Sequence record: KM190144
Length of the DNA: 64,000 bases
Reading direction: 5' to 3' (one strand)
Origin: Escherichia phage Av-05
Shown here: positions 45,462 through 63,502 of the stretch, in pieces
Numbering within the stretch: the stretch's first letter is position 1
How the letters are laid out: the number at the start of each line of letters is the position of its first letter
The notes under the pieces: model-generated
What the model was told of the DNA's origin: nothing
Databases searched by the model: none
Seen by the model: only the letters and a program-made list of their open reading frames with translations
Made by a program: the position numbers and the translations under genes

Positions 45462-46100
45462 TTACTCTGATATAGGGTCTGTTTTTGATCTTCTTTTCTG
45501 GACTTTCTTGGGTCTTCCTGTGATATGTGACCATGAGTATCCATTATTTAAAGAAGATATTGTATTTCTGGAAACTCCGAATAGTTCCGCAATAGCTTTG
45601 TGTGTTATCCCACAATCAATAAGCCGTACAATCTCTAAAACTTTCTCCTTTGTAAGGACAGATAAATGATAATCATCACCAAATTTTTGGATTCTCCCCA
45701 TACTATAAGCCACTGTATTGTTATGGCTATAGGTACACCACTCAAGATTTTCAACTCTATTATTATGTCTGTTACCATCTATGTGGTTTATAATTGGAAC
45801 TCCTAGCACAGTTTTTCTGCATTCTTTCTGCAATTCTGGAGAAGGAGGCTCTTTAAAAGCCTCCGCTACAAGTCTATGGACTGAAAAACTTTTCCCTGAA
45901 TCTTTACCCCTTTTGTACAAGCACACGCTCGGATAGCATTGTGGAGATAAATTTTCACTTTTAGTTTTTAAATATTTCCACATTCCTGATTTAAAAGATC
46001 TTACATTTCCATAATTACTTACTTGATAATCAGGATACCCTACAATATCCTTCCAAATTTCCTCTACTTCATCAGTGGGAATCTGCCCATGTGTATCCAC
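45462..46100 (-). CDS. Free-standing HNH homing endonuclease (NUMOD4-like N-terminus)
   Basis: GYPDYQVSNYGNVRS motif and NHIDGNRHNNRVENLEW HNH motif; GTG start overlaps 3' end of polymerase exon 3. Confidence 0.65.
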   Translation of the reverse strand: MDTHGQIPTDEVEEIWKDIVGYPDYQVSNYGNVRSFKSGMWKYLKTKSENLSPQCYPSVCLYKRGKDSGKSFSVHRLVAEAFKEPPSPELQKECRKTVLGVPIINHIDGNRHNNRVENLEWCTYSHNNTVAYSMGRIQKFGDDYHLSVLTKEKVLEIVRLIDCGITHKAIAELFGVSRNTISSLNNGYSWSHITGRPKKVQKRRSKTDPISE

Positions 46101-46371
46101 AAAGATATTCTCCTGTAATTAAAACGGGAAGCCCCATTATCTTAGACGCTTTTTCTACACATTTTGTTGCAAGCTCTCCTACTGGGCAATGCAGTATCCT
46201 GTATTTCCCATACACATCAGGTTCAACAATAACTTTACCTGCTTTCACATAATGTCCGTCGAAACGATGGCCTTTTTCAAGCATCATATCTACATAGCTT
46301 TGTGCAGCCTCTAAGTTAGAATGCTCCGTTATTGATTTAAATCTTTCCGGTACTTGTACCTGTATCTCATC
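46072..46371 (-). CDS. DNA polymerase (family A), exon 3
   Basis: Begins DEIQV (completes motif C as ...YYH|DEIQV) and ends GLPVLITGEYLCGYTWADSH, like Pol I/T7 pol C-terminus. Confidence 0.6.
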   Translation of the reverse strand, partial: DEIQVQVPERFKSITEHSNLEAAQSYVDMMLEKGHRFDGHYVKAGKVIVEPDVYGKYRILHCPVGELATKCVEKASKIMGLPVLITGEYLCGYTWADSH

Positions 46372-47214
46372 CACTAGTTCAAGGAGTTCGCTACTCTCCC
46401 CCGCACCGTTACGTGCATAGCCACAAGATTTCTCCTGTGGGTCAGACTATATCATAACCCTTTTTCAAGGGTTCCTCCCGTTTGGACCGCGCTTGCTGGC
46501 CTACTCTACTCGCTTCTTCACATCAGATGAAGCTGATGCTATGCTTTCGATAGTCGTTGAACGTCACTTACCAAGTATAGTCTTTAGAGATATGCACCCA
46601 CAATCTCCGTTGTTTAATTCCTTTTACGGATGGGTAGGGGTATCCGAGATCTCTAATCTCGCATTGCCTTAGCCCTGACTGTAGCAATTCACAAATCTCT
46701 CTCACATCTTTTTCTGTGAGAATGGCATTCGCATTGTTTTCACCAATAGGTATAACACGTAATCCTGTATCGTAAGCATGTTTTATATTGCTGCCATGTG
46801 TCCCCCACTCAAGATTCCACGCTGCGTTATTAAGTTTGTTTCCATCTTTATGATTAACGCTGGTGAATCTTTCTGGATCTGGATTAGGCACAAAACATTC
46901 TGCCACCATCCGATGTATGGCTTTCGTACAGGACTTACCGTCTATCCTTATAATTGTACACAGATATCCCCTCCCATTATCAAATACCTGCAAGGGAAGT
47001 TTATCTCTTTTTGAAAGAGGCGTGGAACCATCTTCAAAAACTGTATACCCATGGTAATCTTTTGCTTTTACCATTTTACTATACCTCTTTAAGTTTTCGC
47101 TGCGGATTGGCATATTGTCCTTATAACACAATACATTATAAGAATCAACTTAGCTTTCCCGACAATTAGAGAGGTTTTCGACATGCATTACTGCATGAAG
47201 CCACAATGTTATTT
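46372..47214 (-). mobile_element. Group-I-intron-like insertion 2 in DNA polymerase gene, with HNH ORF
   Basis: Splits motif C; minus strand has R-like GTTCAACGACTA and S-like ATGATATAGTC elements; 5' exon ends U, insertion ends G. Confidence 0.55.
46568..47131 (-). CDS. Intron-encoded HNH homing endonuclease
   Basis: VNHKDGNKLNNAAWNLEWGTHGSN HNH motif; 187 aa inside insertion 2. Confidence 0.65.
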   Translation of the reverse strand: MCYKDNMPIRSENLKRYSKMVKAKDYHGYTVFEDGSTPLSKRDKLPLQVFDNGRGYLCTIIRIDGKSCTKAIHRMVAECFVPNPDPERFTSVNHKDGNKLNNAAWNLEWGTHGSNIKHAYDTGLRVIPIGENNANAILTEKDVREICELLQSGLRQCEIRDLGYPYPSVKGIKQRRLWVHISKDYTW

Positions 47215-47547
47215 ATGGTAGTAGATAACCCTTCTGACACCCTGGTCGTACCATCCCCGTTTCACCAATTCCCAATGGAACAGGACTCCCATGAGGTCAA
47301 ACAATGAAGCACCACCGTTTTGTTGGTAAGCATTCAGCAGAGAATGTTTAGAACGAGTCCAAATTTTACGCCCATCCATACCTGGAATATAGCGTCTCCC
47401 ATTTGCCTCCCAGAATTTTTCTAACCACTCCCTACGCATTTTCAACCCGAAGTTACTATCCCAGAATGCGTCTATTACAGCCTGTGCTCTATTAAGGGGG
47501 ATACCCAGCATTGCGGCTATCTTAGGAGCTTGTGCTCCATACATGAT
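47215..47547 (-). CDS. DNA polymerase (family A), exon 2
   Basis: IMYGAQAPKIAAMLG...YIPGMDGRKIWTRSKHSLLNAYQQNGGASL parallels T7 gp5 region FLYGAG...IKGLDGRKVHVRSPHAALNTLLQSAG. Confidence 0.6.
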
Positions 47548-48281
47548 CATATTGTTCAACATGGCTCGCTACACCATGCCCGTCCTTTTAGGAACTGCTA
47601 CATATTTCTATGCAGATCAGACTATATCTTCATCCTTTTCAGGATGCCCACCGCTTCGGCAGTCTGAAAGACTGGAGGTTTCCCTCACCGCTTGGCCCTA
47701 CGCCTTTCGGCTAGTCGTTGAAGTTTCGAATGCTTCCCAACATTTATGTTCTATTTGATGGCATTTTTTACAAAGTAATTCAAAATTACTTATTTCGTTA
47801 TTCGTCCTGTCATGGTCAATATGATGAACGCACCATTCATCTTTACCTGCATAAAGAAGATCTTTATTACATCTATTACAGTATCTTCTCTGTTCCTTTA
47901 TGACAGGGGATAACTTACGAAACATCGATATGCCATTTTTATAAAATTTGGACAATTTCCCACGAGGCTGCCCACCACCTTTTCCTATGCCAACTCTGTC
48001 AAGCCTATTTTCTCTTTCGGCCTTTCTGCGTCTATATTCTCTGGTTTTTATCTTTGAATATTCTCTTCTACAACCTTCAGAGAGACATACTTTTTGATTT
48101 TTACCAGTTTTAACACATTGTTCACCGCAGATTATACAACAAAATGTGCCCATATTCTCCCTCCTTTTGTAAGAGGGAAGCATTCGCTTACCTGCTGATT
48201 ATCTTCGACATAACTCGGTCAGATTTCCCAGCAATTCAATGGGTGCACCTTACAAATTACTTTGTAAGGGGGCTATCATTA
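47548..48281 (-). mobile_element. Group-I-intron-like insertion 1 in DNA polymerase gene, with HNH ORF
   Basis: Splits motif B region; R-like CTTCAACGACTA and S-like GAAGATATAGTC on minus strand; TAATGATAG stops in all frames right after exon 1. Confidence 0.55.
47698..48183 (-). CDS. Intron-encoded HNH endonuclease (Cys-rich zinc-finger N-terminus)
   Basis: CVHHIDHDRTNNEISNFELLCKKCHQIEH HNH motif; GGAGGGAG RBS. Confidence 0.65.
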   Translation of the reverse strand: MLPSYKRRENMGTFCCIICGEQCVKTGKNQKVCLSEGCRREYSKIKTREYRRRKAERENRLDRVGIGKGGGQPRGKLSKFYKNGISMFRKLSPVIKEQRRYCNRCNKDLLYAGKDEWCVHHIDHDRTNNEISNFELLCKKCHQIEHKCWEAFETSTTSRKA

Positions 48282-50318
48282 ACCATACGTAATCCCCTTT
48301 CCTCCAGAGCGTGTTACCTCCTTTCCTGCTGCTATTGTGTATGCTCTTGCGTTTCGTTCATGGGCATCCTCTTCCATCATGATACGTAAATACTCACCAC
48401 CATCAAACTCAAAAGCCCCTGCTGCAGCAATCATACCTTCTAAGTTAGACCCGTCACAACCCATCAGGTAGTAGCCTTCAGGGACTGTCCAAAGACCCCG
48501 CATTTCTTTTCCCAACAAAACCTTCGGATCAGGCTTGGGCATGTTTGCGCAAACAGTGTGCTTGCACCTGCCCGTGTTAGTGATTCCAGAAAAACGTGCT
48601 GGAAGTTTTCCGTCAATGTCTAAACGAGGGTGATTTAATAACCCTGTATCCGTCTTGTCCTCATCCATTGGGTCTAAAACAGATCGCCTGTTACGAAGTG
48701 ATAACCACTTAACAATCTGTTTTGCCATATGCACATCAATTTTCTCCAGATTTGGACACAGATGCCCAAAATTATCTTTTAGTTGAGGAGATGTCGGTAA
48801 CTGGCGTGCCTTACGCCGAAATTTCTTAAATATCTCTGAATAACCTCTTTCAGATGCATGTCGATGGTCAAACTTACGCTCTGAAATGTTGAATTTCTCA
48901 TCTGAATCATTAAGGTAGTCAAGAATAAGAGATTTATACTCAGACTCAGCCAACTCTTCTATGTACTTCTTAACTAGTACATCAATTTCAGAATCTTCTC
49001 TGGCCTTTTTAAATTGATCCTTCGTAACGTCCTTTACACGCCACAGTGTAGGTTTCCAACCAGCATCTTTGATCAGATATTTTTTAATGTCATCTTGATT
49101 GGAGATTTTCATTGGAACCATTAAATCTGGCATTTTTCTGTTTCGAAGGTCTTCTTTAGCCTTCTCTAGAAGATCCGGCGGCAAAGGTTCGAGTGTGTTC
49201 TCTTTGGTTCGCTGGGAACGAATGAAATTACCGTATAAAGCCGGATCTTCAATGCCATTCTGGATGCAATATCTCTCCCCTGCTGCACTTACATCCCCAT
49301 TACTCTTAAAAGCTGTTTTTGGTGGGGCTTTAAACTCTAGAGCTTCTCTGTTAACAGGATAACCAAGTTTATATTCCAACCAATTCCACCCATGATAAGA
49401 TATATTACCCGCTGTGTCAAAAGGGTTAGCTGGGAATTTTGGTTGTTGGGATTTCGTCATCTCTTTTTTTGGAAGAAGTGGTTCTACCTCTTCTTCAATC
49501 TCCCGCATCATCTTATCTATGCGGTCTCTTAATTTTTCTGCCTCCTCTCGATTAAAGTATACACCCTGTATTTCTTGCTCTATCATCAAATAGTCTGTGA
49601 GCATTCTCCTACGTAATGCATTTTTCCAATTAATCTGGTGCATCCCGTGAGGTTTATCAGCATACATGAACTGCTTGTCATCAGGCCATCGCGTACCATT
49701 TGACTCGTCAATAAGAGCTTTCCACACAAGTTCGTTAATGATAACGTCTTCCCACACACGGTTTACATATTCCCACAATGGTTGATTACGCCAATCATCA
49801 ATCTGTACTTTCTTGTTTGCCACACGATAACCCCATGCCAATAAGCCGTGTGGCCCAACCCTATCACGTTTTCCTGTTACAGGGTTTAATACAGAGTCTG
49901 GGCAGCCATTAGGCAATGGGCGATCTGGGTAAAGAACACGACTCATTGAAAGAGTGTCGTAAAGATTTACCTGTTTATTACCTATCGTCCCCATACATTT
50001 TGGGTCTTTGAACATATCATATTCAATCCCAGAAAGTTTTTTCCACAGACGTAAATCATAGCCAAACAGGTTATGTATTGCTATCCCTCTTGGTTCGGTC
50101 TGTAACCAAGAGTAAAAATCATCATAAGAAAGGATTCGTAAATTAACACCTTCTTTGCTGCGTGCAAAATTAACTGCACTCTGGTATTCCTTGTGAGCAG
50201 GATCGAGAAACAACACCCAGTTATTTACAGCATATTCTTTAAAAAGTGTGCAGTGATATTTAGTTGCCTCTTCTAATAATCCGTCAGCCTCTGTATCGGC
50301 TAAAAAAAGTCCTTTCAT
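48282..50318 (-). CDS. DNA polymerase (family A, T7-like), exon 1 (3'-5' exo plus N-terminal polymerase part)
   Basis: Exo I motif FLADTEADGL; motif A region CDGSNLE; ends ...RSGGKGITYG; AGGAGG RBS before ATG 50318 (track start 50360 upstream of RBS). Confidence 0.65.
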
Positions 50319-50513
50319 ACTCCTCCTATTCAAGATGGGCTTGACTGTATCGTCGCCCATCTCTTAGTTGGTTATAGATTATGTGGAAAACTACCTATTT
50401 TTGATTTATGTTTCTTTGCCAAAGGGCTTCTCTTGGCGGGAATGTATCCCTCAAGCCCCTTGGCAACACGAATAGCTAACTCATCATATTTTACATGTAT
50501 CCTCTTTTTTCTC

Positions 50514-52514
50514 TCAAAATGGAGAATCGCTATCTAAATCTTCAGGTTGCTCAATCACAACAGCAGGTTCTTGTTGAGGAACAGAAACAGCAATTTTCCC
50601 CACAGGTGTTTCAAGTTCCAGACTTTGAATCATTGATTTAGGTCTTAGCATTACCTCCCCATTAAGTTTAAACATACCATCTTCCCACACCCAACCAGAT
50701 GCATCAGAAAACTGACCATTATCATCCATAATCAGAGTATCCGCTATGCCTAATTTTTTGTGTGGACGGTTTTTCAAAACAACACTACGAATACGCCCAC
50801 GAGATCGGTCAGGGAGTTCTTCAGGCTCGACACCTAAGACAACCCACGATAACTGTTCGAGTGCTGCACTTCCCCTTAAAGATTCTTTTCTCACCGGATA
50901 CCAGAAAGGTAACAAATTACCTTCTTTATCTTTCGGAATTTGTATATCAACACGCTTCATATGACTGATACTGAGGATAAACACGTCATATTTTTTGCAG
51001 AAGGCAGCCAATTCCGTCATGATGTTATCTAAATCTCTTCTCTCGTTATCAGATTTTAATCCTGATATCACCATCGACAAGTGATCTAAAATAATCCACC
51101 TACACCCGTCAAGGAAAACCATCTGTTTCAATTTTTGTAGTAATTGGTCAGTCGGTATTGAACCAAAGTGATCAAAAATTTTAACCTTATCTTCGGCAAT
51201 CCACCGTTGGTGTATAGCTAAGTGCTGCTCATCGGTAAGAAATTGCTCTGGATCTGCAACAAATGCTTTCGGGTCAATTTTTAACTCCTCAGCATATAGA
51301 CTGTTTACAGACTCCTCTTCATCCTCCTCTAGACGGATAATTGCAATTTTCTCGTTCTCTTTCCAACCGTCCAGTCGGGGAATATCCATGTTACGGAGGT
51401 ACTCGATAATTGCATACTCAATCTTTCTTGAGAAAGTTGATTTCCCAGCTCCAGATGGGCCTGTCAGTGTCCACAATTCTCCTGTTCGTGGGCCTCTTGT
51501 TAGTTCATACAAACGAGGAAAGCACGGCAACGGAACGCCATCTTTTTTCTTTTTACGGAGATTTTCAATAGATATTCTCTCCAACCCAATCAATTTGTCT
51601 GGAACATATTTATCCTGCGCTTTAGCAAACATGTTCCAGATATCCATCCACTTACCTTTTTTGTAAATATCCCGGATATCTTTAACACCATTTGGGTCAT
51701 TGCGTTCATTTGGGTATCGTGCAACGTAGATATTGTCAGACAGTAAAAAACCTGCGACATCATCTGTAGCTTCCTTGCCTTTCTTAATTCTGTGTTCTTT
51801 TTCCCTTGCTGTGGCTTCATCATTGTCTAAACCAAGGACAATCTTTTCATATTCCCTGATAAACTTTTCGTTGTGGGCAAATGTATCTACCGCATTGGCT
51901 GTTCCACAGTTCAACCCGATAAAAGGTAATGTCGGGCAATTAGAAACCTCCTCACCATCCTGAATGGCTTTGATACCTTTTAAAGCATTGTTTGCCCACT
52001 CACGTACTGAACGTGACGTATTAGGATTACTATGAAGAAATTTAATATACTCAAACCCAGCTTGCCAGCCAGCCGTTACATCGCCTTCCCCCTCAACAAT
52101 AAAGATCTGTTTTTTACCAGATCCCATAGAGGCCTCATGTTGACCAAAAAATTGAGAGGAAGCCTTTACTGTGCCAACAACAGAGAAATGCCCCTTTTTC
52201 TCTTTCGGAACAGTCCAGTCTCGTTTCTTGTACCCTGTCAATTTCCCATATTTGTCATAATATGGAAGATATGTTGCCACTACTGTAGTACCGTCTTTCA
52301 AATCTGTTGCAGATCTGATCTTGAAGTACTTAGCTGCATCTAAACTAATATCCATTTGGGGGACAGCCAAGATCCTTGTACTATCCAGGACAGACTCTAC
52401 AGTTTCTTCTTCTTTTTTCTGATAATTCACTTTACCACCACTTTTTGTAGGTCGGAATGCTTTTGGGTTCTCACCTTCAAAGTATGCACCAGCCCCCCAT
52501 TTTGTAATCTTCAT
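50514..52514 (-). CDS. Primase-helicase (TOPRIM primase fused to DnaB-like helicase, T7 gp4-like)
   Basis: TOPRIM IFIVEGEGD and LGLDNDEAT; Walker A LTGPSGAGKST; Walker B WIILDHLS; acidic C-terminus ending DSDSPF. Confidence 0.7.
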   Translation of the reverse strand: MKITKWGAGAYFEGENPKAFRPTKSGGKVNYQKKEEETVESVLDSTRILAVPQMDISLDAAKYFKIRSATDLKDGTTVVATYLPYYDKYGKLTGYKKRDWTVPKEKKGHFSVVGTVKASSQFFGQHEASMGSGKKQIFIVEGEGDVTAGWQAGFEYIKFLHSNPNTSRSVREWANNALKGIKAIQDGEEVSNCPTLPFIGLNCGTANAVDTFAHNEKFIREYEKIVLGLDNDEATAREKEHRIKKGKEATDDVAGFLLSDNIYVARYPNERNDPNGVKDIRDIYKKGKWMDIWNMFAKAQDKYVPDKLIGLERISIENLRKKKKDGVPLPCFPRLYELTRGPRTGELWTLTGPSGAGKSTFSRKIEYAIIEYLRNMDIPRLDGWKENEKIAIIRLEEDEEESVNSLYAEELKIDPKAFVADPEQFLTDEQHLAIHQRWIAEDKVKIFDHFGSIPTDQLLQKLKQMVFLDGCRWIILDHLSMVISGLKSDNERRDLDNIMTELAAFCKKYDVFILSISHMKRVDIQIPKDKEGNLLPFWYPVRKESLRGSAALEQLSWVVLGVEPEELPDRSRGRIRSVVLKNRPHKKLGIADTLIMDDNGQFSDASGWVWEDGMFKLNGEVMLRPKSMIQSLELETPVGKIAVSVPQQEPAVVIEQPEDLDSDSPF

Positions 52515-52665
52515 CTCTTCTCCTTAGAAGGGTTTGGCAACTACAGCCATATACCAGCCATTACACACAGATATGCCACCTGAGATACAGTAGCCTTTTC
52601 TAAACCAAGTGTTTAGTTTTGATTCTAATTCTGAAATACTGGTTCCTGTGAGAATCTTGACATTT

Positions 52666-53406
52666 TTATCCACCAACCCTCCTAAAATCATTATATAGGA
52701 ATACAGCTTTGGCAAAACCTCTTGGGGTTAACGATCTTATAACCTTTGTCTTTTTTGATTTGCCACCCAATTTTAGGTGCTGCTCAGAATACCCGTCTAA
52801 CACGGGGACGGGTAATTTCTCAGGCATCTTAAAACCATTGCCTGTCCACAAACAAGTCTTTTTAGGGTAGGCATCTCTGGGTTTTATGTATTCTGGAAAA
52901 AATGGATGAACATCATTCTCTGGTAGATACCCGCCGTACTCATAAGGATGAAATGAATAGTCTGGTTTACGCCACAGAGAAGATAGAACACTAACTGGAT
53001 TTTCTATCATGTAAGGGCAGCCGTATTCATCTGCCAGCCTTGCTGCCACTTTTGCTGTATTTACAGCCTTTATCTGGAATAAAGGGTCTTTTGCAGCTTT
53101 TCTTGCGAAATGCGCTGCGCCACTAACAGCCATATCTGTGCATGGTGGGAATGCGAATATAATACTTGGCGTACATATCCCTATCTCTACTGGGTTAAAC
53201 TGGTCGTCTATCCAAACATTGATATATTCTATATTTTTGTGTTTTATTCTGATACTTTCATAACCACCGTGATCAGCGCCATCATAGTTAAGGCATATTA
53301 CTTTGTACCCATTCTTTGCCCACTCATAACCCATGATGCCGGATCCGTCAAACATGCACAAAACTGTATCACTCAATACACCTCCTATACCAGAAAACAG
53401 GCCCAT
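52666..53406 (-). CDS. DNA (cytosine-5)-methyltransferase-like protein
   Basis: Motif I LFSGIGG, motif IV FPPCTDMAVSG, ENV-like IENPVS; short (246 aa) for this family. Confidence 0.45.
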   Translation of the reverse strand: MGLFSGIGGVLSDTVLCMFDGSGIMGYEWAKNGYKVICLNYDGADHGGYESIRIKHKNIEYINVWIDDQFNPVEIGICTPSIIFAFPPCTDMAVSGAAHFARKAAKDPLFQIKAVNTAKVAARLADEYGCPYMIENPVSVLSSLWRKPDYSFHPYEYGGYLPENDVHPFFPEYIKPRDAYPKKTCLWTGNGFKMPEKLPVPVLDGYSEQHLKLGGKSKKTKVIRSLTPRGFAKAVFLYNDFRRVGG

Positions 53407-53433
53407 AGCTGGGCCTTTTAAGTTACGCTAAAA

Positions 53434-53655
53434 TCAGTGCAATACTGCATGAACAGGGCTTCCATCAGCCCCGTAAGGAATGTCTCGTACCTGGGCCAGC
53501 CTTTTCACTAAAGTATACACCAGCCAACCTTCAGCTTCATGTTGTCCTGCAATATCATAACCATCATCAAGAAGTTCAGCCAGTTTGTTCTCTACTTCTT
53601 CTCTTTTTGTTCTGCTAATTTTGAACTCAATGAGTTTAACAGTGTTTTTAACCAT
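53434..53655 (-). CDS. Hypothetical protein
   Basis: ORF in track, 73 aa. Confidence 0.35.
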   Translation of the reverse strand: MVKNTVKLIEFKISRTKREEVENKLAELLDDGYDIAGQHEAEGWLVYTLVKRLAQVRDIPYGADGSPVHAVLH

Positions 53656-53659
53656 AATT

Positions 53660-53944
53660 CTAGAAACCTTCTTCTCTATTGTAACACCCGTTTATCTCTA
53701 GATCTCTCAGGTATTCTCTTAAATGATGGTATAGCACATCATCTGGAATGTCAAGATAGATTTGCTTACCGTTTTTGAATACAGCGTAATATTCCAGTTC
53801 CTGAAAGCCGTTGTAATCCCAGTCGCTTTCTTTACTGAAGAAGTCAGGTTTTTGAACAGAAAATAGAGCTTCGACAACCACCAATCCGCAATCCTCATGG
53901 TCGTATTCGAACTCAATGTCTACCATAGGGGATTTGCTATTCAT
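53660..53944 (-). CDS. Hypothetical acidic protein
   Basis: ORF in track, 94 aa. Confidence 0.4.
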   Translation of the reverse strand: MNSKSPMVDIEFEYDHEDCGLVVVEALFSVQKPDFFSKESDWDYNGFQELEYYAVFKNGKQIYLDIPDDVLYHHLREYLRDLEINGCYNREEGF

Positions 53945-54410
53945 ACTCCCCCAACTCTTGTTTTAACTCAATATTTTCTTTTAACAGGGCATTCACAAAA
54001 GCTAATATGTGAACAAGAGAACTCTGACAACCATTAGCATATAGTTCAGCTTCTACACGCTTTTTCAATTTCGCACCATAACCGTCTAAGTTGTCGAGAT
54101 GCTCTTTAATTTTATCATAAGCATCTCGTTTTCCTCTTAGCTCATTAATAATGTACAGAACATTATCTGGGCTTGCGGTGGCAATGTAACTGGCATCGTA
54201 GTCATTTTGCCAGTGAGATAAATTCCCAGTTCCCTCATGTCTCTTTGCCGGACCCATTTTAGGATCTGTGATGAAAACAGTTTTTACCTCCTTATCATCC
54301 TGAAAGGATACCATCGAATGTCCATGGCTATCTATCCACCAGTGCCCTCTGGTGGCTTTCTTTGCCAGTTTCTCAATATCTCCGATTAAGATATCAGCTT
54401 TTGTCTGCAT
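53937..54410 (-). CDS. Hypothetical protein
   Basis: ORF in track, 157 aa. Confidence 0.4.
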   Translation of the reverse strand: MQTKADILIGDIEKLAKKATRGHWWIDSHGHSMVSFQDDKEVKTVFITDPKMGPAKRHEGTGNLSHWQNDYDASYIATASPDNVLYIINELRGKRDAYDKIKEHLDNLDGYGAKLKKRVEAELYANGCQSSLVHILAFVNALLKENIELKQELGEYE

Positions 54411-54884: not shown

Positions 54885-55248
54885 CTTTATTTTCCTTAAA
54901 GTAGTTAAATAAATCAGTGATTTTCTCTTCCACACCTTTATAGAAGAGATACTTTGTGTCTGCCATACGAGAATTATATGCGTCTTGACCTTTTTCCTGC
55001 AACCAGAAGAACGCTTGTGCAAACTCACCCTCTTTGAGGGTCGGGTCATATTCAAAACCAATTCTTTTACAGGCTTGCAAAGACTGATGGATAAGAACAT
55101 CCAAGGAGTTTATTATATGTGCAGCATTCTCAACATCGCACGCCATACGATGCTCACCTTTTGCAGAGAGTTCTTTAGAAATCTCCATAAGTCGACGGAA
55201 AGTTTCTTCTGCCACTGTTCTTGTACCTTTACTTGTAGATATTTTCAT
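54877..55248 (-). CDS. Hypothetical protein
   Basis: ORF in track, 123 aa. Confidence 0.4.
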   Translation of the reverse strand: MKISTSKGTRTVAEETFRRLMEISKELSAKGEHRMACDVENAAHIINSLDVLIHQSLQACKRIGFEYDPTLKEGEFAQAFFWLQEKGQDAYNSRMADTKYLFYKGVEEKITDLFNYFKENKDV

Positions 55249-55250
55249 AA

Positions 55251-55676
55251 TTAGTCCTCGAATTTAATCCAACGCTTCTGGGATTTGATCTGACCTTTCT
55301 CACCTTTACCTTTCAAACGCTGGACAGCCACCTGTTGTACAATTTTACTCCGTAAAGCAAAGCTGATAGCGTCAGGAGCTAAAACACGAGCTTTACAAAC
55401 ACAATTATTATGAAGTGACACAGCATCTTCAAAAGACAGGTTTAAAGGGTGTTTTTCAGAACCCCAAACACGATAATATCCAAAACGACCATCCTTAACA
55501 TCTGGGTAGTTAGGTAGTAAACGAGGTGCATATCCTAATGCAGCCATCATTTCATCAACCGATGCCATCTGGATATGTGTGGTGTCTTTACCATGATGAG
55601 ATTCTTTATTATCCCACCAACCCTTTAATTCAGCTTTAAATTTCTTCAAAAGTTCACTTTTTGAATATGAGGTCAT
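55251..55676 (-). CDS. Hypothetical protein
   Basis: ORF in track, 141 aa. Confidence 0.4.
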   Translation of the reverse strand: MTSYSKSELLKKFKAELKGWWDNKESHHGKDTTHIQMASVDEMMAALGYAPRLLPNYPDVKDGRFGYYRVWGSEKHPLNLSFEDAVSLHNNCVCKARVLAPDAISFALRSKIVQQVAVQRLKGKGEKGQIKSQKRWIKFED

Positions 55677-55686
55677 CAGCTATCTC

Positions 55687-56991
55687 CTACTTACCAGGGA
55701 AAGTCTCTTCATAAAACTTAACAAGACGTTGATCAACGATAATATCTTTATCCCTGATCCTACGTAATAACCTTAATCCTTTTGCACTTGTTGCTCTGCT
55801 AAAAGCCACGTATGCCATGCCCGGTGCAAAAGTCCCATTGCCAAAGTCAACATTAACTTCCGGTAATGTTAATCCTTGTGCTTTGTGTATTGTAACAGCC
55901 CACCCAAGACGAATCGGTAAAGCCCTGTACTCACCAATGATAATCTTCTCAATTTCTTCAGTTATTGTACCATCTGGGTTTTTCACCTTTATGGGGTTAT
56001 ACTCAACATTTTCCCACACATAAGGTTCTACGTCAACAATATCCCCATTTTCAAGACGGACTCTAACACTGTACCTACGTAGTTCAACAATCTCTCCACG
56101 GGAACCATTCACATAGCTTGGTTCATTTAGTCCTTTAGGGTCATTGACAGTAATCATCACCTGCGCCCCCTCTTTCAGATACAACTCTTCCGGTACAGGT
56201 GTCTGGTTAAATTGCCCTGTCTTTTTTGCCTTGTAAACTGTTGGGATTCCAGGTATTGCATCAAAACGTTTTTTGTTTATTTTGTCTGCTGCCGCGTTTG
56301 TTGAGGTTATTGTTATAGCATCCAAGGGTTTTCCCATGTTGTAGCAATAAGTATTCATAAACTCAACAATCTCTGGAATACGCTCTCCCTTGCGAAGGCA
56401 ATTAAGAAGTGTTGAAAAATGAACACTACTTTGCCTGTATATTTTATCAAGAAATACAGGATATGGGTTCAATTCTTTCCATGTTTTAGAAAAGCAACAA
56501 AGTTCTGTGTCGTGGAACTGGTAGTAGATCTCTTTTTCTTCACCTTTCAAAACAGGTGGATTCTGTAAGAAATCCCCGAACATGCACACCTGCAAACCAC
56601 CGAAAGGCTCTTTAGGTTTTTTACGTGCCAGACGACATTTCATGTCCATTTCCCAAAGTTTGTCTGCCCTGAACATACTTATCTCTTCAATAATAAGAAT
56701 CTTCAGTGCTTTACTTTTAAGCAACTTCTTAGCCTTTGCCTTTATCTCTTCTGCATCTTTTTTAGTGGACACGCCTAATGAAAGTCCGAAAGCTCTGTGT
56801 GCCGTCATACCATCCACATTAATGGCAGCAGCCCCTGTAGGGGCCACTGTCAAGACTGAACCTGCGTATAAGGATTGGATAGTTTTTATGGTATGGCTCT
56901 TTCCAGCACCTGCATAACCACTGATAAACACATTTTCACCGGACATTATAGCGCCAAGAGCATCTTCAACGCCAACCCCGTATTGAGACAT
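55687..56991 (-). CDS. Dda/RecD-like SF1 DNA helicase
   Basis: Walker A ISGYAGAGKS, VLTVAPTGAAA, Walker B IIEEISM, TIHKAQGLT and AYVAFSRA motifs. Confidence 0.7.
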   Translation of the reverse strand: MSQYGVGVEDALGAIMSGENVFISGYAGAGKSHTIKTIQSLYAGSVLTVAPTGAAAINVDGMTAHRAFGLSLGVSTKKDAEEIKAKAKKLLKSKALKILIIEEISMFRADKLWEMDMKCRLARKKPKEPFGGLQVCMFGDFLQNPPVLKGEEKEIYYQFHDTELCCFSKTWKELNPYPVFLDKIYRQSSVHFSTLLNCLRKGERIPEIVEFMNTYCYNMGKPLDAITITSTNAAADKINKKRFDAIPGIPTVYKAKKTGQFNQTPVPEELYLKEGAQVMITVNDPKGLNEPSYVNGSRGEIVELRRYSVRVRLENGDIVDVEPYVWENVEYNPIKVKNPDGTITEEIEKIIIGEYRALPIRLGWAVTIHKAQGLTLPEVNVDFGNGTFAPGMAYVAFSRATSAKGLRLLRRIRDKDIIVDQRLVKFYEETFPGK

Positions 56992-58004
56992 CAGTCCTCC
57001 TTAGATTCTTGTAGATAAATCTCTTCAAGAATTTTACCCTGTACACCAATGACAATAATATCTGGCGCACCTGCTGGTTTTGGTGTTCCTGTCAGAACTT
57101 CATAACGACAGCAACGGCATTTTTTCTGGTTATAGTCATAAGGGACACTGACAATATCTGCCGGATCCACAGATACTTCTACAAGTACCCTTGAAGTCTT
57201 CTCAAAGGTAGTGGCATAGTCAATAGATGCAACATGCAAACCTTGGCTACATGTTCTATTGGGATTATCCTCAACCATATTACGTGGCATGGAAATAACT
57301 TGCCCTTTATAATTAGGAACTTTACCTGTATGACAATCTCGTGGGCCATCTACAGTTATCTTAATTTTCTTGTATGCCTTAATATTTCCGTTTTCAAGGA
57401 TCTCAAGATCATTATGTTTTACAAAATCATAAAGCATTTTAACAGAAGCATACGACGGGTTGTGTAGCAACTTCTGCATGAATTTGACATATCGTTCGTC
57501 AAAGCAATCATTCTCAATATCTTTAATGATTCGTTTAGCAATACTGCTTTCCTGTTTTTGCCCGTGCCAATACAAAACACCATCTATCAATACTAAATTA
57601 TCACCAAAATCAATGGTCTTTTTCTTTTCTGCTTCTTTCTCTTCTAAAATACGTTGTACAGCAGCATCTATTCCTCCTGTCCAAAGGATAACACCAACTT
57701 CTTTGAAGATGGGGCTGCTACTATTTAGAGTATATTGTTCACCATTTAACAAAGTGATATGAATATTGTCTTGGGTAACAAGGACAATTGGTTGTGCAAG
57801 AGAATGCACTGGCTTCATAATACCTACAGGATCTTCCTTGGCCTTTTTGGTTGTCGGCATTCCTTTTTTGGGTGCAACTGTCCAGCGTTTAAGAACATTT
57901 AGACCACGATCAACAACCATCATATTATTTTTCTTAGCGTATTCACGAGCTTCACGACGTGACATGAATAAAGGATTACTCACCTTTTCCTCCTTTGCTG
58001 TCAA
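56991..58004 (-). CDS. rIIB: rIIB-like protein
   Basis: Immediately downstream of rIIA-like gene; C-terminal MPRNMVEDNPNRTCSQGLHV...DPADIVSVPYDYNQKKCRCCRYEV resembles rIIB conserved C-terminus as recalled. Confidence 0.45.
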   Translation of the reverse strand: MTAKEEKVSNPLFMSRREAREYAKKNNMMVVDRGLNVLKRWTVAPKKGMPTTKKAKEDPVGIMKPVHSLAQPIVLVTQDNIHITLLNGEQYTLNSSSPIFKEVGVILWTGGIDAAVQRILEEKEAEKKKTIDFGDNLVLIDGVLYWHGQKQESSIAKRIIKDIENDCFDERYVKFMQKLLHNPSYASVKMLYDFVKHNDLEILENGNIKAYKKIKITVDGPRDCHTGKVPNYKGQVISMPRNMVEDNPNRTCSQGLHVASIDYATTFEKTSRVLVEVSVDPADIVSVPYDYNQKKCRCCRYEVLTGTPKPAGAPDIIVIGVQGKILEEIYLQESKED

Positions 58005-59976
58005 TAAATTTACGATACTCTAGCATCTCTGGAGTATTGAAATGCCTAATATTAATGTATTTTAACAATGGGTAGCGATCTTTCTTAATTTGTAGCAGCT
58101 TTTTACCAATTCTCTTCTTGGCCTCTATCATCCATAATGCTTTCTCACGGCTATCTTCGTAGCCAGGAACTGAACAATAACTGGGCATGTTTACCTTCAT
58201 CTCCCATTTTGGGAAACTGGCTACCATCACACCAAAATAGCTAAGCTCTTTAACAATGTTATGATACTCATGATCTTTCCCCACTTCTTGATATAAATGA
58301 TATTCAAGAAGGTTAGTTTTTGCAAGAGCATGAATATCCTCCTCAGTTATAACCCGTGCCTCATCTGGCAGCCAACTTGATCTGTTTAAAGGCACAATGT
58401 ATAACTTACCTGCCACACCAAGATGTTTAAGAAATGTTGGTGGTTGCTTTCTCCAAGTTGTTCTAAGATTGGAAACGTATCCTAACGGGCATAATCCTTT
58501 CACCTGCCCACCCCAGTAGACCATAGCCGCCTCAATATCTTCAAATTGAGCACGGGAAATACGGGTTACATCTACGGAGCCATCTTGGTTGATTATCCAA
58601 ACTTTATGACCCGGTTCGTAATAACCATAGCCACCATACTTTTTATCTGCTTTTTGCACTGGTCGTTTTTCAAGTTCAGATAACTTGAAAATCATCCCTT
58701 CAAAGAATTTATCACTGTATAAGGACAGAGCGTAATCAGCATCGGTTATAAACGATCTCTTACCGAACTTCTCTGCAAGCCAGTTACATTTAGAACGCAC
58801 ATACTTGCGATCATCATTGTAAACCAGTGGATGACCATTCATCAACTCTGCGTATGAATAACGCTCATCCTTACCACGGCGTGAGCCTTCGCCACCATAT
58901 GTTTCACAGTAATCTATGTAAGAACCATCAGTATAATTCTTGAATTTATTTGCAATAAAAGCAGCACCGTATTTTGTGGCGAAGTAACCGCCAATAAACT
59001 TCATATGATCAAGGACTGCTTTTAAAGTTGGCAGATCGCTTAATTCTTTTGTGATTTCTTCTCCGCGAAGTCGGATAGCTTTCGTCACAAAACTTTCAAG
59101 TTTATCACGGAATCCTCCGTCATTCTTTCCTTCTACTGTCCATTCTCGGCCTGGGTCTACATTACAATCCCCAATAGGGATAGATACCGTCATCATGGGC
59201 AGTTCTTTACGAGTCGAGAGATAATCAGAAAGATATGGTTGCTGACCCATGATAACAACACTATCCGCGTTTCTTGAAATGCTACTATACATCTCAAGAA
59301 CCCAGCCAGTCTCCTCATCCTCATAACGATACTGAACAGGATAAGTGCGATCTTCAATCTGAGTTTTAACAAAAGGATCGTTAATGATATATGGAAATTT
59401 AGCATAGCGAAGGCATTTTACAATAGCCAGCCGATAAGCTCCTGTTTCCCAAGTGTTTACGTTAAATTTAACCTCTACACCATTCTCCTCTGTTGTTTCA
59501 CAAGAGAATAAAGGCACAACCTCTGGGATTCCACTGTTTTTATGGACAGAGTATGTTGTTTTCACTCCATCTTTAACAGAAATAACTGTGAACATATCTG
59601 TTACTGCAAGAGGCGCTTTTGACCCAATACCTTTCGCGCCAATCAGATCATTACTGTTTCTTTTTGTGGACTCACCAATCATCATGAATGTACGTGTTAC
59701 CATCTCATGATCCATACCTAACCCTGTATCCTTAACAGAATACCAAGGTTCCAAGTCTGTTGGTGAGTGGATGATGATGGGTTTGTCAGAACACCCTGCC
59801 TCTGTGTGAGCATCTACAGCGTTGAAGAGAGGCTCTCGTACTGCTGCTAAAGGTTTATCTTTATAAATTCCATCGATAAGAATACTGAAAGTCTCAGGAT
59901 TCATTGCAATTGATGCTTGGTATCTTTCTACGTTCCCAGTTACCTGAACTTTGTTGTCAGATCTTTGAATAATCAT
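57976..59976 (-). CDS. rIIA: rIIA-like protein (N-terminal GHKL ATPase-like domain)
   Basis: N-box AVREPLFNAVDAH, G1 VKDTGLGM, G2 GAKGIGSKA. Confidence 0.55.
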   Translation of the reverse strand: MIIQRSDNKVQVTGNVERYQASIAMNPETFSILIDGIYKDKPLAAVREPLFNAVDAHTEAGCSDKPIIIHSPTDLEPWYSVKDTGLGMDHEMVTRTFMMIGESTKRNSNDLIGAKGIGSKAPLAVTDMFTVISVKDGVKTTYSVHKNSGIPEVVPLFSCETTEENGVEVKFNVNTWETGAYRLAIVKCLRYAKFPYIINDPFVKTQIEDRTYPVQYRYEDEETGWVLEMYSSISRNADSVVIMGQQPYLSDYLSTRKELPMMTVSIPIGDCNVDPGREWTVEGKNDGGFRDKLESFVTKAIRLRGEEITKELSDLPTLKAVLDHMKFIGGYFATKYGAAFIANKFKNYTDGSYIDYCETYGGEGSRRGKDERYSYAELMNGHPLVYNDDRKYVRSKCNWLAEKFGKRSFITDADYALSLYSDKFFEGMIFKLSELEKRPVQKADKKYGGYGYYEPGHKVWIINQDGSVDVTRISRAQFEDIEAAMVYWGGQVKGLCPLGYVSNLRTTWRKQPPTFLKHLGVAGKLYIVPLNRSSWLPDEARVITEEDIHALAKTNLLEYHLYQEVGKDHEYHNIVKELSYFGVMVASFPKWEMKVNMPSYCSVPGYEDSREKALWMIEAKKRIGKKLLQIKKDRYPLLKYINIRHFNTPEMLEYRKFIDSKGGKGE

Positions 59977-59996
59977 TCAATACCTCTATGAACTAA

Positions 59997-60515
59997 TTAT
60001 GCGTCAGGATGCTTGTAAAAAATATGATTCCCAACCTTCACTGTTCTCACCATAACTTTTGTCCAAGATGGTCTAACAGTAGTTGCATGATAGTACGTTG
60101 CTGATTTTGTGTAGTCAAGAGCTTTGTATAAACTTTTGTGGTCTTTATGCAATCTCATCAAGATTTTAGCATAAAATTTAGCCCTCAACCATCTATCCTT
60201 TTCATAAACTTTAAAGGATTGCCCACCGAATGTCCAAGAGAATTGCCCTCGCTGATAAACTACTTTCTTGATAGTACGAGGGAAATTTTTGTCATCCTTT
60301 CTGTTCAGCGTGGCAAACGCGACACCCATCATTCCATAATCGCCTTCACCTCTTCCTTCTTTATACATATTACAGGCAAGAATATTAAGCTCTGTATCAT
60401 TCTTCTTGCAAATGTGAAGAACTCTGGGCTTCTTTGCACTTTCTTTGGCTAGAACAGGAGTAATAGACAGAGAAAGTGCACAGCAAACTGCAAATAATAA
60501 AGATCTTATTTTCAA
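59997..60515 (-). CDS. SleB-like cell wall hydrolase (Hydrolase_2 family) with signal peptide
   Basis: LACNMYKEGRGEGDYGMMGVAFATLNR and YQRGQFSW motifs; probable TTG start at 60515 with GGAG RBS gives MKIRSLLFAVCCALSLSITPVLA signal peptide; track ATG 60542 lies in a hairpin. Confidence 0.5.
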   Translation of the reverse strand: MKIRSLLFAVCCALSLSITPVLAKESAKKPRVLHICKKNDTELNILACNMYKEGRGEGDYGMMGVAFATLNRKDDKNFPRTIKKVVYQRGQFSWTFGGQSFKVYEKDRWLRAKFYAKILMRLHKDHKSLYKALDYTKSATYYHATTVRPSWTKVMVRTVKVGNHIFYKHPDA

Positions 60516-60534
60516 AACTAACTCCAGACAAATA

Positions 60535-60551
60535 AGCCCCATGAAGGGGCT
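60535..60551 (-). terminator. Terminator-like hairpin after 60557-60901
   Basis: Minus strand AAGCCCC-TTCAT-GGGGCTT then ATTTGT; weak U-tract. Confidence 0.35.
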
Positions 60552-60556
60552 TCTTG

Positions 60557-60901
60557 TTAACGATGGGTAATATCTCCAGATATTGTGTTCACACTACCAT
60601 GGATCGTATTTGCGCAAACATCACCAGACACCGAAGACACATTGCCTAAAATATCTTTTTCAACATTAATATCCCCAGATGTTGAGATCACACCATTAGA
60701 GACATTTCCATAAACATTGATACCACCTGATGTTGTGCGTACCTCTTTAGCATCACCTTTGATAATAACTGTGATGTTTTTATCGTTTGTGGTGTGAACT
60801 AAATCACCATTGATATATACATTATCACCCTTAGTAGTGATAGAGATACTACCATTGGTATAGTTTCCAGAAATTGTATTGCCGTTAATTGTAATCATTG
60901 T
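60557..60901 (-). CDS. Beta-helical repeat protein (bactofilin-like repeats)
   Basis: Repeats of G(N/D)xxVxGxV/I (ITINGNTISGNYTNGSISITTKGDNVYINGD...); start taken at MITINGN. Confidence 0.35.
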   Translation of the reverse strand, partial: TMITINGNTISGNYTNGSISITTKGDNVYINGDLVHTTNDKNITVIIKGDAKEVRTTSGGINVYGNVSNGVISTSGDINVEKDILGNVSSVSGDVCANTIHGSVNTISGDITHR

Positions 60902-61070
60902 TTTGTTTCTCTTTAACAATATGTGCTTTCTGAACAGAGTATACAAATGTTTTATTGTCTTCAATAAACTCTCTGCCCTGTTCTTCATTCTCAAAAATAA
61001 TTGTGTCACACTTTGCCTTTAACATACCACGTTCTACAGTTGTGTGTGTCGTAGAAACAATTAAAGCCAT
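60885..61070 (-). CDS. Small hypothetical protein
   Basis: ORF in track, 61 aa. Confidence 0.35.
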   Translation of the reverse strand: MALIVSTTHTTVERGMLKAKCDTIIFENEEQGREFIEDNKTFVYSVQKAHIVKEKQNNDYN

Positions 61071-62110
61071 TAAGACACCTCGTTAAGTTGTTCCATGTAC
61101 CAGCTACGGGCTTTATTTGTTGTAAATTTTGCCACGTCTTTCATAGAAAGAGAATTGGCTTCTAGCACATCAGCTTCTTCTTTGTTGATATCTCGGTTAA
61201 CCCATGCGATAAATGCCCCCAGAGATGCGATGTCCAATCCAATCTCTTGCAAACCTTGTTGCAAGCGGTTCTCGGTGACTGCATACTCCACAAAATCTTT
61301 GATAGATTGCAGTTTCACAGGATCAACAAAGGCTAGGGTTTTCACTTTAGAGACAGAATGTTTTTGCCCTTTCACTTTAAACCAAAGTGCAGAAACATGT
61401 GCCAAGTGGCGATCTTTAGGTGTCCATACCACACCCTCACCAACACCAGATACACCAAAATATTTACCTACTGGGCACTCTTTTTCCACACCTTCGGTGA
61501 TCTGTGCAATTTCTGATTGCACTGTCTCTGGCATGTTAAAAGGAATATCCAGTTCCCACTTACCAAAAGTTAAAATATTATAAATGCGTTGTTCTGGTAA
61601 TCCAATGCCAAGAATATCGTCTAAAGCTAACCATTTTCGATGGTCATTCTCTTTTCCTACTGCCACACGGAAAATAGTAAAGAAAGGCATGATTTCAGAT
61701 ACCGCAACACCTTTCTGGATACCTTTTCCTGAAAATTCTCCAGCAATTTCTACTGGGAACTTAAATTCAATACCCCGATCTTCGCAGAGTTGCTTAACTT
61801 GCTCCAACAGGAGCTTATGGTCCTTTTCAACCATAAAGGCCATAAACCCATAATTGTCTTCTTCCAAAGACAAAACGCGTTCTTTGGACTGGTATACAAC
61901 CTCATCTTCAGAATTAAAGACTACACGGCAATTAGTCCCGTGAATTTTAACTGTTCCCACATAAGGAATGAGATATTGGTCTGGAGAGGCAACCTTACGC
62001 TTTATATTGCCATTCTCATCACGACCATCATAGGTTAAACGATCATGAATCGCTCGGATAACATTGCGAAATTGGCTAGTGCTTGGATACTTAGTTACTT
62101 GCATTATCAT
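61070..62110 (-). CDS. RNA ligase (T4 Rnl2-like)
   Basis: Motif I KIHGTN, motif III-like GEFSGKGIQKGV, motif IV EGVVW, motif V WFKVKG. Confidence 0.6.
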   Translation of the reverse strand: MIMQVTKYPSTSQFRNVIRAIHDRLTYDGRDENGNIKRKVASPDQYLIPYVGTVKIHGTNCRVVFNSEDEVVYQSKERVLSLEEDNYGFMAFMVEKDHKLLLEQVKQLCEDRGIEFKFPVEIAGEFSGKGIQKGVAVSEIMPFFTIFRVAVGKENDHRKWLALDDILGIGLPEQRIYNILTFGKWELDIPFNMPETVQSEIAQITEGVEKECPVGKYFGVSGVGEGVVWTPKDRHLAHVSALWFKVKGQKHSVSKVKTLAFVDPVKLQSIKDFVEYAVTENRLQQGLQEIGLDIASLGAFIAWVNRDINKEEADVLEANSLSMKDVAKFTTNKARSWYMEQLNEVS

Positions 62111-62477
62111 CTTCCTTATTAATAAAAGTCACACCAAGAGTTGCCTGGGCAAGAAGTTTCGTGATCTCCTGGCTCCATACAGGACTGGAGATAAAATGTT
62201 GTAATTGGAGGCTACCTAAGCGATAGGCACTGTTCATCGTAATAGCATAGATTTCTCCATCGTGCAGGATCAGACTTTCGACAACAGAAGTCCTGATATT
62301 AGAACCACTAAATCCACGCTTTTTGAGGTCATCTGCTAAGTATCCACAAATGCATCGAACATCTTTTGTATAACCAAAACCGAAATAGGGTTCAGCACCG
62401 AACAGGATACCAGCGTATCTCTTCCCACAGACATAGGTATCTTTAGATATGCCTGTTACAGATTTACTTTCCATCAT
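62091..62477 (-). CDS. Hypothetical protein
   Basis: ORF in track, 128 aa. Confidence 0.4.
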   Translation of the reverse strand: MMESKSVTGISKDTYVCGKRYAGILFGAEPYFGFGYTKDVRCICGYLADDLKKRGFSGSNIRTSVVESLILHDGEIYAITMNSAYRLGSLQLQHFISSPVWSQEITKLLAQATLGVTFINKEDDNASN

Positions 62478-62677
62478 TGGCCCTCCACATCGTCAATATC
62501 TTCCATACCATCTTGCCACAGAACTTCATAGCAAGCGTCATAAATTGCGCTCATAGCATCTTTACGATCTAACACATCTACAATTTTTGGATCAATACTT
62601 TTAATTGCTTCCGCAATTTTATCGTAAGCAATATCAGGATGCATGTTCTTTTTTGCCATCTGGGATCTCCTCTTCAT
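62474..62677 (-). CDS. Small acidic hypothetical protein
   Basis: ORF in track, 67 aa. Confidence 0.35.
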   Translation of the reverse strand: MKRRSQMAKKNMHPDIAYDKIAEAIKSIDPKIVDVLDRKDAMSAIYDACYEVLWQDGMEDIDDVEGQ

Positions 62678-63242
62678 TTAAGACATAAATTGTCACATCA
62701 CAATCATGGAGAACAGATTCTATCATAGTTTCTATGATTTTCCAATCCCCACCTGCTAGTCCAGCACCTATTTTTGGCAGCCCGATCTTATAATCAGACA
62801 TAAAACCATCTGTGTGCCTTTGCAAACAATCTCGCATTGCTGCTAAGGAATCGTAAAGGGCGTTATAATTCAGATCCCTCACACCCATTCTACGCCCATT
62901 ATAACCGTATTGTGTGTACAGATTAAAACCAGCCAGTTTACCTTCGTTCATGACAACCCAAGTATAACTGCCCAGTTTTGTTCGATCACCTTTCTCTGTC
63001 TTTAAATCTTCAGCATACATTTTTGGGAATGCATTCTTTATTTCTTTAGCAATTCCAGACCCCATGGTGCAAAATGTATTACAACCATGAGCTATTACAT
63101 TAACATCCCTTTTAAGTGCTGCCTCTATTAAGCAACCAACTTTATACTTAAGCATTGTCTGATACCTCTTCGCATTCGTATGGATAGATATCCAGTCTTT
63201 TCCCATTCCATTCGCAAGAGTAACACTCAAGAAAACTACCAT
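62634..63242 (-). CDS. Macro-domain-like protein (ADP-ribose binding/processing fold)
   Basis: VNVIAHGCNTFCTMGSGIAKEI and KIGLPKIGAGLAGGDW resemble the two glycine-rich macro domain loops. Confidence 0.45.
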   Translation of the reverse strand: MVVFLSVTLANGMGKDWISIHTNAKRYQTMLKYKVGCLIEAALKRDVNVIAHGCNTFCTMGSGIAKEIKNAFPKMYAEDLKTEKGDRTKLGSYTWVVMNEGKLAGFNLYTQYGYNGRRMGVRDLNYNALYDSLAAMRDCLQRHTDGFMSDYKIGLPKIGAGLAGGDWKIIETMIESVLHDCDVTIYVLNEEEIPDGKKEHAS

Positions 63243-63330
63243 TAAATATTTCTTCTCTTACTTCAAGAATATCTCCTGTTTTTGGATATCCATCAACATC
63301 CGAAAAATCAGAAATCATTTTAACCTTCAT
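63148..63330 (-). CDS. Small hypothetical protein
   Basis: ORF in track; GAAAGGAG RBS. Confidence 0.4.
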   Translation of the reverse strand: MKVKMISDFSDVDGYPKTGDILEVREEIFNGSFLECYSCEWNGKRLDIYPYECEEVSDNA

Positions 63331-63502
63331 TCACAACTCCTTTCAAGGAAGGCATTCATACTTTCCAATGCCTCGCTTTTATTTTTAGCACAAACAACAA
63401 ACACACGCTTATTTTTATAGGTGTATCCTGCCATGACCATATCGGATCTTTCAATCCACCATTTCTCATGTAGCTGGTCTTTCTTAAATTTATGTTTTGC
63501 CA
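63327..63502 (-). CDS. Small hypothetical protein (58 aa, below track cutoff)
   Basis: ATG at 63502 to TGA at 63327 (MAKHKFKKDQ...); stop overlaps next start (ATGA). Confidence 0.3.

Follow-up and report, generated by a model that had tools for sequence, protein, structure and literature searches.

An rIIA/rIIB gene pair in Escherichia phage Av-05, a predicted counter-defence module against Rex-type abortive infection

In bacteriophage T4, two genes named rIIA and rIIB let the phage grow on bacteria that carry a prophage-encoded suicide defence. Here we analyse a related pair of adjacent genes in Escherichia phage Av-05, contained in a stretch of 64,000 nucleotides (nt) of sequence record KM190144 (hereafter the window), for which a first reading of the DNA letters (the original prediction) had proposed an rIIA/rIIB-like identity and the same membrane-associated anti-exclusion function as in T4. 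When RIIA or RIIB was knocked down in T4, MM02, EdH4, SUSP1 and N4, plating was lowered only on hosts with lambda RexAB, and rII systems that are less than 40% identical and come from four subfamilies all suppress Rex (PMC11879866). One of these phages, EdH4, belongs to the genus Vequintavirus and, like Av-05, to the Vequintavirinae (PMC6563267). Likewise, transposon insertions in T4 rIIA and rIIB were depleted on RexAB hosts, indicating conditional essentiality (bioRxiv 10.1101/2025.11.20.689424). In E. coli, RIIB is toxic by itself, and T6 RIIB alone is sufficient to trigger a CARD/gasdermin defence of Lysobacter (bioRxiv 10.1101/2023.05.28.542683); therefore, the rII module can also be a liability. 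The rII system is still termed 'poorly understood' (PMC8594841, PMC11879866).

Both genes of Av-05 are, as judged from sequence, genuine relatives of T4 rIIA and rIIB. When their products were compared with the PHROGs database, the upstream protein (666 amino acids, aa) matched phrog_612 'RIIA' with E 3.6e-125, its aa 1-659 being aligned on profile positions 1-720 of 725, and the downstream protein (330 aa) matched phrog_609 'RIIB' with E 5.1e-67. These are also the best PHROG families of T4 rIIA (NP_049616; E 9e-250) and T4 rIIB (NP_049889; E 6.6e-111). Direct alignment by BLASTP was significant for both proteins, with 28% identity to T4 rIIA over aa 1-278 (E 5e-21) and 36% identity between aa 100-304 of the second protein and aa 107-304 of T4 rIIB (E 4e-40), this latter similarity being restricted to the C-terminal block, where the original prediction had seen a resemblance to rIIB. 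As both proteins match the families of T4 rIIA and rIIB and also align directly to them, the pair can be regarded as genuine rII, and the profile search, in which a lack of similarity to rII proteins would have spoken against the proposal, gave strong matches for each gene. By homology, the pair very probably represents the rIIA/rIIB orthologues of a Vequintavirinae phage and an accessory counter-defence module against Rex-type abortive infection.

The GHKL ATPase boxes attributed to the 666-aa protein, as in T4 rIIA, were all located close to its N-terminus: NAVDAH at aa 52-57, DTGLGM at aa 83-88 and GAKGIGSKA at aa 113-121. The Pfam domain HATPase_c_3 was detected at aa 45-147 with 36 bits, above its cut-off of 25, so that this part of the proposal was borne out. 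In an alignment of 67 sequences, T4 included, the residues invariant in the rIIA family were E48, N52 and D55 (ExxxNxxD), D83 and G85 (DxGxG), G113, G116, G118, S119 and K120 (GxxGxGSK), and R277-E278. As the invariant residues of the GHKL motifs are present, the nucleotide site of rIIA looks intact. NCBIfam, which has no rII model, returned only sub-threshold GHKL matches, and a search with the rIIA sequence against solved structures gave no match.

A relationship with Hsp90 emerged when an AlphaFold2 model of rIIA, built on the same alignment (mean predicted local distance difference test score, pLDDT, 87.9), was compared with the PDB. The 50 best matches all belonged to the Hsp90 family (TRAP1, Hsc82/Hsp90, GRP94 and one HtpG-DnaK model), the best of them with E 3.4e-17, and about 500 columns comprising the N-terminal and middle domains were aligned. 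The TM-scores were low (0.32-0.49), and therefore the arrangement or the content of the domains in rIIA would differ from that of Hsp90. The rIIA family profile, compared with the sequences of the PDB, also gave Hsp90 N-domains first (TRAP1, GRP94 and HtpG; E 1.6e-8 for TRAP1), and hhalign related rIIA to E. coli HtpG with a probability of 96.9% and E 1.5e-10. A hidden Markov model of aa 185-360 placed the 'SRExLQ' motif of the family on residues 332-341 of HtpG, 'LNVSREILQD' (with R336), which we take to be the loop of the Hsp90 middle domain that bears the catalytic arginine. Since the 'SRExLQ' match has just 4.5 bits, the equivalence of this loop with the Hsp90 catalytic loop is considered suggestive; in the clade of Av-05 the corresponding position reads PGREWT.

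Despite this likeness, rIIA failed the curated Hsp90 models, reaching 31 bits in the NCBIfam HSP90 family model, whose cut-off is 455, and leaving Pfam HSP90 unmatched, and for this reason it is not classified as an Hsp90 member. The chaperones HtpG, TRAP1, GRP94 and Hsp82 have in common with rIIA the fold match over the N-terminal and middle domains and the signature 'LYsxK...RExxxNxxDA', whereas their sequences are only 12-16% identical to it, its C-terminal half shows no relationship in sequence and rIIA, unlike the chaperones, has a dedicated partner gene, rIIB. The model is thus suggestive of a protein that would work like an Hsp90-type clamp without being a member of the Hsp90 family. 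A literature search for work joining phage rIIA with Hsp90 found nothing relevant.

Regarding rIIB, an exhaustive HMMER search with a limit of E<=1e-3 yielded 7564 cluster representatives, which share a core at aa ~68-298, and the precomputed Pfam domain PF26926 is present on all close homologues. The core is 51-66% identical to that of named rIIB proteins of Seunavirus type (PVP-SE1, 4MG, GAP31 and KP12) and, in an alignment of 72 sequences, it contained the invariant residues N175, G199, R234, C245, G248, H250, Y256, P274, P281, K288 and R290, every one of which is kept in T4 rIIB. The AlphaFold2 model reached a pLDDT of 92. The rIIB core is without a solved structural relative: against solved structures the sequence gave one insignificant match (E 0.68) and the family profile nothing meaningful.

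The N-terminus of rIIB differs from that of T4. It is confidently modelled as a beta-alpha-beta-beta unit of ~40 aa ('LFMSRREAREYAKKNNMMVVDRGLNVLKRWTV'), whereas T4 rIIB begins with a resolvase-type helix-turn-helix (HTH; HTH_7 with 27.9 bits, cut-off 23.8). The N-terminal 47 aa matched no Pfam family and weakly matched phrog_6265, a stand-alone phage family of 42 aa (E 4e-4). The domains that flank the core vary widely among the 72 family members, many of which have HTH or zinc-ribbon domains; hence the HTH of T4 type is variable across the family and is not a defining trait. The module, recognisable as 'LFxSRxEAR...RWxV', is present in one copy in Av-05 and in two tandem copies in rIIB of Seunavirus type, and this second copy accounts for the additional 75-120 aa of the latter. 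Accordingly, rIIB of Av-05 is small (330 aa) compared to those of the other Vequintavirinae rII loci (393-449 aa in AlexBoehm, Hena1 and the Seunavirus type of PVP-SE1, 4MG and GAP31).

A separate observation concerns the phrog_609 'RIIB' profile, whose 1055 positions match N-domains of rIIA at ~19-310 and cores of rIIB at ~750-1049. This suggests that the family includes proteins in which rIIA and rIIB are naturally fused, or gene calls that were merged; if true, fusions would support a physical partnership between the two proteins.

The likeness of rIIA to Hsp90 and the orphan, modular character of rIIB are properties of the whole rII family and not specific to this locus. A broader proposal, which we regard as speculative and rather doubtful at present, is that throughout the family rIIA is a phage Hsp90-type ATPase clamp that keeps the catalytic arginine loop, and rIIB its obligate partner, with a fold without a solved relative that might be very divergent and ADP-ribosyltransferase-like, and with swappable targeting modules (the HTH in T4, the 40-aa unit here). 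If this were true, the 70-year-old rII problem would gain a concrete, mutable mechanism, namely that the Rex trigger is remodelled or sequestered in an ATP-dependent manner, and Av-05 would offer a naturally minimal rIIB. The mechanism of rII being poorly understood, an Hsp90-like rIIA, an orphan fold in the rIIB core and a modular rIIB N-terminus would be of wider interest if confirmed.

The organization of the locus was deduced from the list of open reading frames (ORFs) and from a reading of the junctions, and it is summarized in Table 1. The two genes lie on the minus strand, co-oriented and overlapping, and together they fill positions 56991..59976 of the window exactly. The ORF list gave the second gene as 56991..58004 with a TTG start and 337 aa. 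Its best start is most likely the GTG at 57983, producing a protein of 330 aa that opens with MSNPLFMSRR. This GTG is preceded by a strong ribosome-binding site, an AGGAGG 5 nt upstream, agrees with the 'MSxLFxSR' N-terminus conserved in rIIB homologues and also agrees with a coding sequence of 993 nt annotated in phage TH18. Therefore, the start of rIIB overlaps the stop of rIIA by 8 nt, and the junction resembles a translational-coupling site, so the pair is probably translationally coupled.

Table 1. Features of the rII locus of phage Av-05 (positions in the window, or amino acid positions in the protein).
Feature	Position	Strand	Details and basis
SleB-type cell-wall hydrolase, upstream neighbour	59997..60542	-	Context, not rII; Pfam Hydrolase_2 E 2.1e-19
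rIIA orthologue, 666 aa	57976..59976	-	ATG start; profile, alignment, motifs, model
rIIA GHKL/Hsp90-type ATPase domain	aa ~27-190		N-terminal
rIIA middle region			Contains the invariant R277-E278 loop
rIIA C-terminal region			Common to Vequintavirinae rIIA proteins
rIIA stop/rIIB start, 8-nt overlap GTGAGTAA	57976..57983	-	AGGAGG before; sequence reading
rIIB orthologue, 330 aa	56991..57983	-	GTG start; profile, alignment, conserved residues, model
rIIB N-terminal module, ~40 aa	aa 1-40; 57864..57983	-	
rIIB disordered linker	aa 42-60		
rIIB conserved core	aa ~63-300		
Dda/PIF1-type helicase, downstream neighbour	55687..56991	-	Context, not rII; Pfam PIF1 E 1.1e-25; phrog_325 Dda-like helicase E 4e-103

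The rII region is part of a long, tightly packed string of minus-strand genes. The stop of the hydrolase lies 20 nt before the ATG of rIIA, and the ATG of the helicase overlaps the TGA of rIIB by 1 nt. The N-terminus of the hydrolase has a hydrophobic, signal-like segment at aa 14-32, with 2.13 in Kyte-Doolittle hydrophobicity over 19 residues (KD19). The hydrolase-rII-helicase block is flanked by a gene for RNA ligase 2 at 61070..62110 (-; phrog_548, E 3e-72), which in Hena1 too lies upstream of the hydrolase and rII genes, and by a gene for a DUF7390 protein at 55251..55676 (-; E 2.6e-26). A scan for promoters and terminators of positions 55000..63500 gave counts equal to the shuffled expectation, and therefore no boundaries of transcription units can be claimed.

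The same order of cell-wall hydrolase, rIIA, rIIB and helicase is found, with the rII genes annotated as such, in AlexBoehm (bas56_0064/0065), a Vequintavirus that served here as the representative of its genus in place of EdH4, and in the Erwinia phage Hena1 (gp156/gp157, Henunavirus); in both phages the position next to rIIA is also occupied by a hydrolase. The rIIA of Av-05 is 39% identical to that of AlexBoehm and colinear with it over its full length (E 5e-159), rIIB is 36% identical (E 1e-65), and identity of rIIA to its closer relatives is 58-68%, again colinear over the full length. Compared with T4, the PHROG families 612 and 609, the N-terminal GHKL motifs and SRE loop of rIIA, the C-terminal core of rIIB and the position of rIIA directly upstream of rIIB are held in common. 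In contrast, rIIA is 59 aa shorter than in T4 and its C-terminal 390 aa cannot be aligned pairwise, the genes overlap here and are separated by a short spacer in T4, and the neighbours are rIIA.1/gene 60 and denB.1/denB in T4 instead of the hydrolase and the Dda-like helicase.

With respect to the genome, the 4-kb rII region has 95.4% nucleotide identity with a member of the Vequintavirinae, Escherichia phage vB_EcoM_TH18 (133.9 kb), and with three partial relatives, 18-1-2, 19-1-2 and 24-2-1, and another 24-kb stretch of the window is 94.4% identical over 80% of its length to the same four phages. On account of these matches, the window can be assigned to a virulent rV5-like E. coli myovirus of the Vequintavirinae. 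Relatives of rIIA were detected by tblastn in 2832 phage records and those of rIIB in 2901. An rIIA/rIIB pair is expected in an rV5-like phage, and this one, syntenic with those of its relatives, is ordinary. As the four related records label both genes 'hypothetical protein', the gain for the window is a corrected annotation, with the names rIIA and rIIB for these genes.

If the pair acts as proposed, naive hosts would be plated on without the module, which would be required for plating on hosts with Rex-type abortive infection, in which RexA activates the RexB channel, the membrane is depolarised and the infection is aborted. The rIIA protein would be an ATP-driven and probably dimeric clamp from the Hsp90 branch of the GHKL ATPases, either soluble or bound peripherally to the membrane, with its ATP site intact and an arginine loop like that of Hsp90 in its middle domain. 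Its partner would be rIIB, with a conserved core of ~230 aa of orphan fold and a variable N-terminal module, and both together may act by masking or remodelling the signal of infection, or the sensor, by which Rex-type systems are tripped. The anti-exclusion function put forward in the original prediction is supported by homology and by the published knockdowns in relatives, not in this phage. The pair would predict superinfection of Rex-type lysogens by Av-05 and, as a predicted liability, the triggering by RIIB of at least one bacterial CARD/gasdermin defence, both of which are relevant when the host ranges of therapeutic rV5-like phages are predicted.

Several points weigh against this explanation. 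The support comes from relatives and none from experiments on this phage, and identity is low (36-39% to rII of Vequintavirus and 28-36% to that of T4), so the target specificity could therefore differ. In addition, the C-terminal 390 aa of rIIA, beyond aa ~280, resemble T4 only through the family profile, the N-terminal module of rIIB is unlike that of T4, both the ATPase activity of rIIA and a complex between rIIA and rIIB are putative, and the equivalence to the Hsp90 loop draws on the 4.5-bit local match and on a fold match at the level of domains, not on a residue-level superposition. The T4 rII proteins are membrane-associated according to fractionation work of the 1970s, and no transmembrane segment accounts for such an association: by KD19 none was found in rIIA (maximum 1.10), rIIB (~1.1), T4 rIIA (1.18) or T4 rIIB (0.89). 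Any association with the membrane would therefore be peripheral or take place via partners. Finally, in the BASEL study RexAB affected very few wild-type phages, and defence as the main role of RexAB was questioned (PMC8594841).

Some of these points would also fit true rII homologues with a shifted target, directed against an abortive-infection or prophage exclusion system other than lambda RexAB, or against several, with rIIB itself being sensed as a trigger in some hosts. This is possible, though clearly less likely than the action on Rex-type systems proposed above. In its favour are the low identity to the tested rII pairs (28-39%), the swapping of the N-terminal module of rIIB between lineages, many members having HTH or zinc-ribbon flanks, the activation of a CARD/gasdermin system by T6 RIIB alone (bioRxiv 10.1101/2023.05.28.542683) and the fitness effects of rIIA/rIIB mutants of Bas37 in clinical isolates (bioRxiv 10.1101/2025.11.20.689424). 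However, the divergent pairs from four subfamilies mentioned above all countered lambda RexAB (PMC11879866), and therefore divergence alone implies no new target. A change of target would plausibly be a refinement of the counter-defence explanation and not a contradiction of it.

The T4 rII mutants were originally defined by rapid lysis, and the part played by T4 rII in the timing of lysis is a mutant phenotype that depends on the host, not a demonstrated activity. A primary role in lysis timing or envelope integrity, tied to the adjacent secreted cell-wall hydrolase, would agree with the database label 'lysis inhibitor', with the placement of both families under 'lysis' in PHROGs and with the conservation of the hydrolase-rIIA-rIIB order in three genera. 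We consider it improbable, since neither protein has a transmembrane segment or a signal peptide, and RNA ligase and helicases are encoded in the same gene string, so that adjacency to the hydrolase may merely reflect an early-gene block. In the work of Paddison et al. of 1998, T4 rII was reportedly not required for lysis inhibition itself. Furthermore, rII knockdowns had no phenotype on hosts lacking Rex (PMC11879866).

That rIIA is instead a GHKL enzyme of DNA topology or repair (a topoisomerase ATPase subunit or a MutL/MORC-like protein) acting in DNA metabolism beside the helicase is hardly credible, as the weak matches to the large subunit of phage topoisomerase II (phrog_543, E 1.3e-3) and to Topo VI-B (E 1e-3 over ~80 aa in the profile search), the DNA-binding HTH domains of many rIIB relatives and the helicase directly downstream are opposed by a score for the rIIA family that is better by more than 100 orders of magnitude, by fold matches (the top 50) with Hsp90 chaperones and no topoisomerase or MutL among them, and by a Pfam scan in which TOPRIM, transducer and nuclease domains were not detected. 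The topoisomerase and MutL-like identities were consequently rejected on relative scores and fold matches. An origin of the genes in a defence system was also rejected because PADLOC gave only short matches to GHKL motifs (TmtA and REase_II) and a BrxL match of 12.7 bits.

Other features were noticed in the same gene string and elsewhere in the window. At 60534..60552 (-), a G+C-rich hairpin is followed by a T-rich tail (AAGCCCCTTCATGGGGCTT ATTTGT). As it coincides with the 5' end of the hydrolase ORF in its listed form and is placed shortly downstream of the gene before, it may serve as a terminator or in RNA processing; terminators as a whole were as numerous as in the shuffled expectation. 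The ORF at 60557..61009 (-) encodes 150 aa of low-complexity, repetitive sequence in which G, N, S, I and V are abundant (e.g. ...SGDINVEKDILGNVSSVSGDVCANTIHGSVNTISGDITHR), a pattern that suggests a beta-helical repeat; the ORF gave no match in Pfam, and TH18 annotates a shorter version of it. Further upstream, a 202-aa ORF at 62634..63242 (-) contains a Macro domain (ADP-ribose binding/hydrolase) with 23.5 bits, against a Pfam cut-off of 22, and may counteract ADP-ribosylation as a member of this string of early genes.

Outside this string, parts of 30000..54410 match Stx-converting lambdoid phages at genes annotated as EaA/Ea22, and the ORF at 53937..54410 (-) has a weak Pfam match to Ead/Ea22 (E 4.5e-4) that is below the cut-off; from these matches, such parts are taken as lambdoid accessory genes in a Vequintavirinae genome. 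The GC skew changes sign at ~10 kb and ~36 kb of the window, leaving the rII region in the last block, of negative skew. As the ORFs listed from 54000 onward in this block are on the minus strand, the skew probably tracks the direction of transcription.

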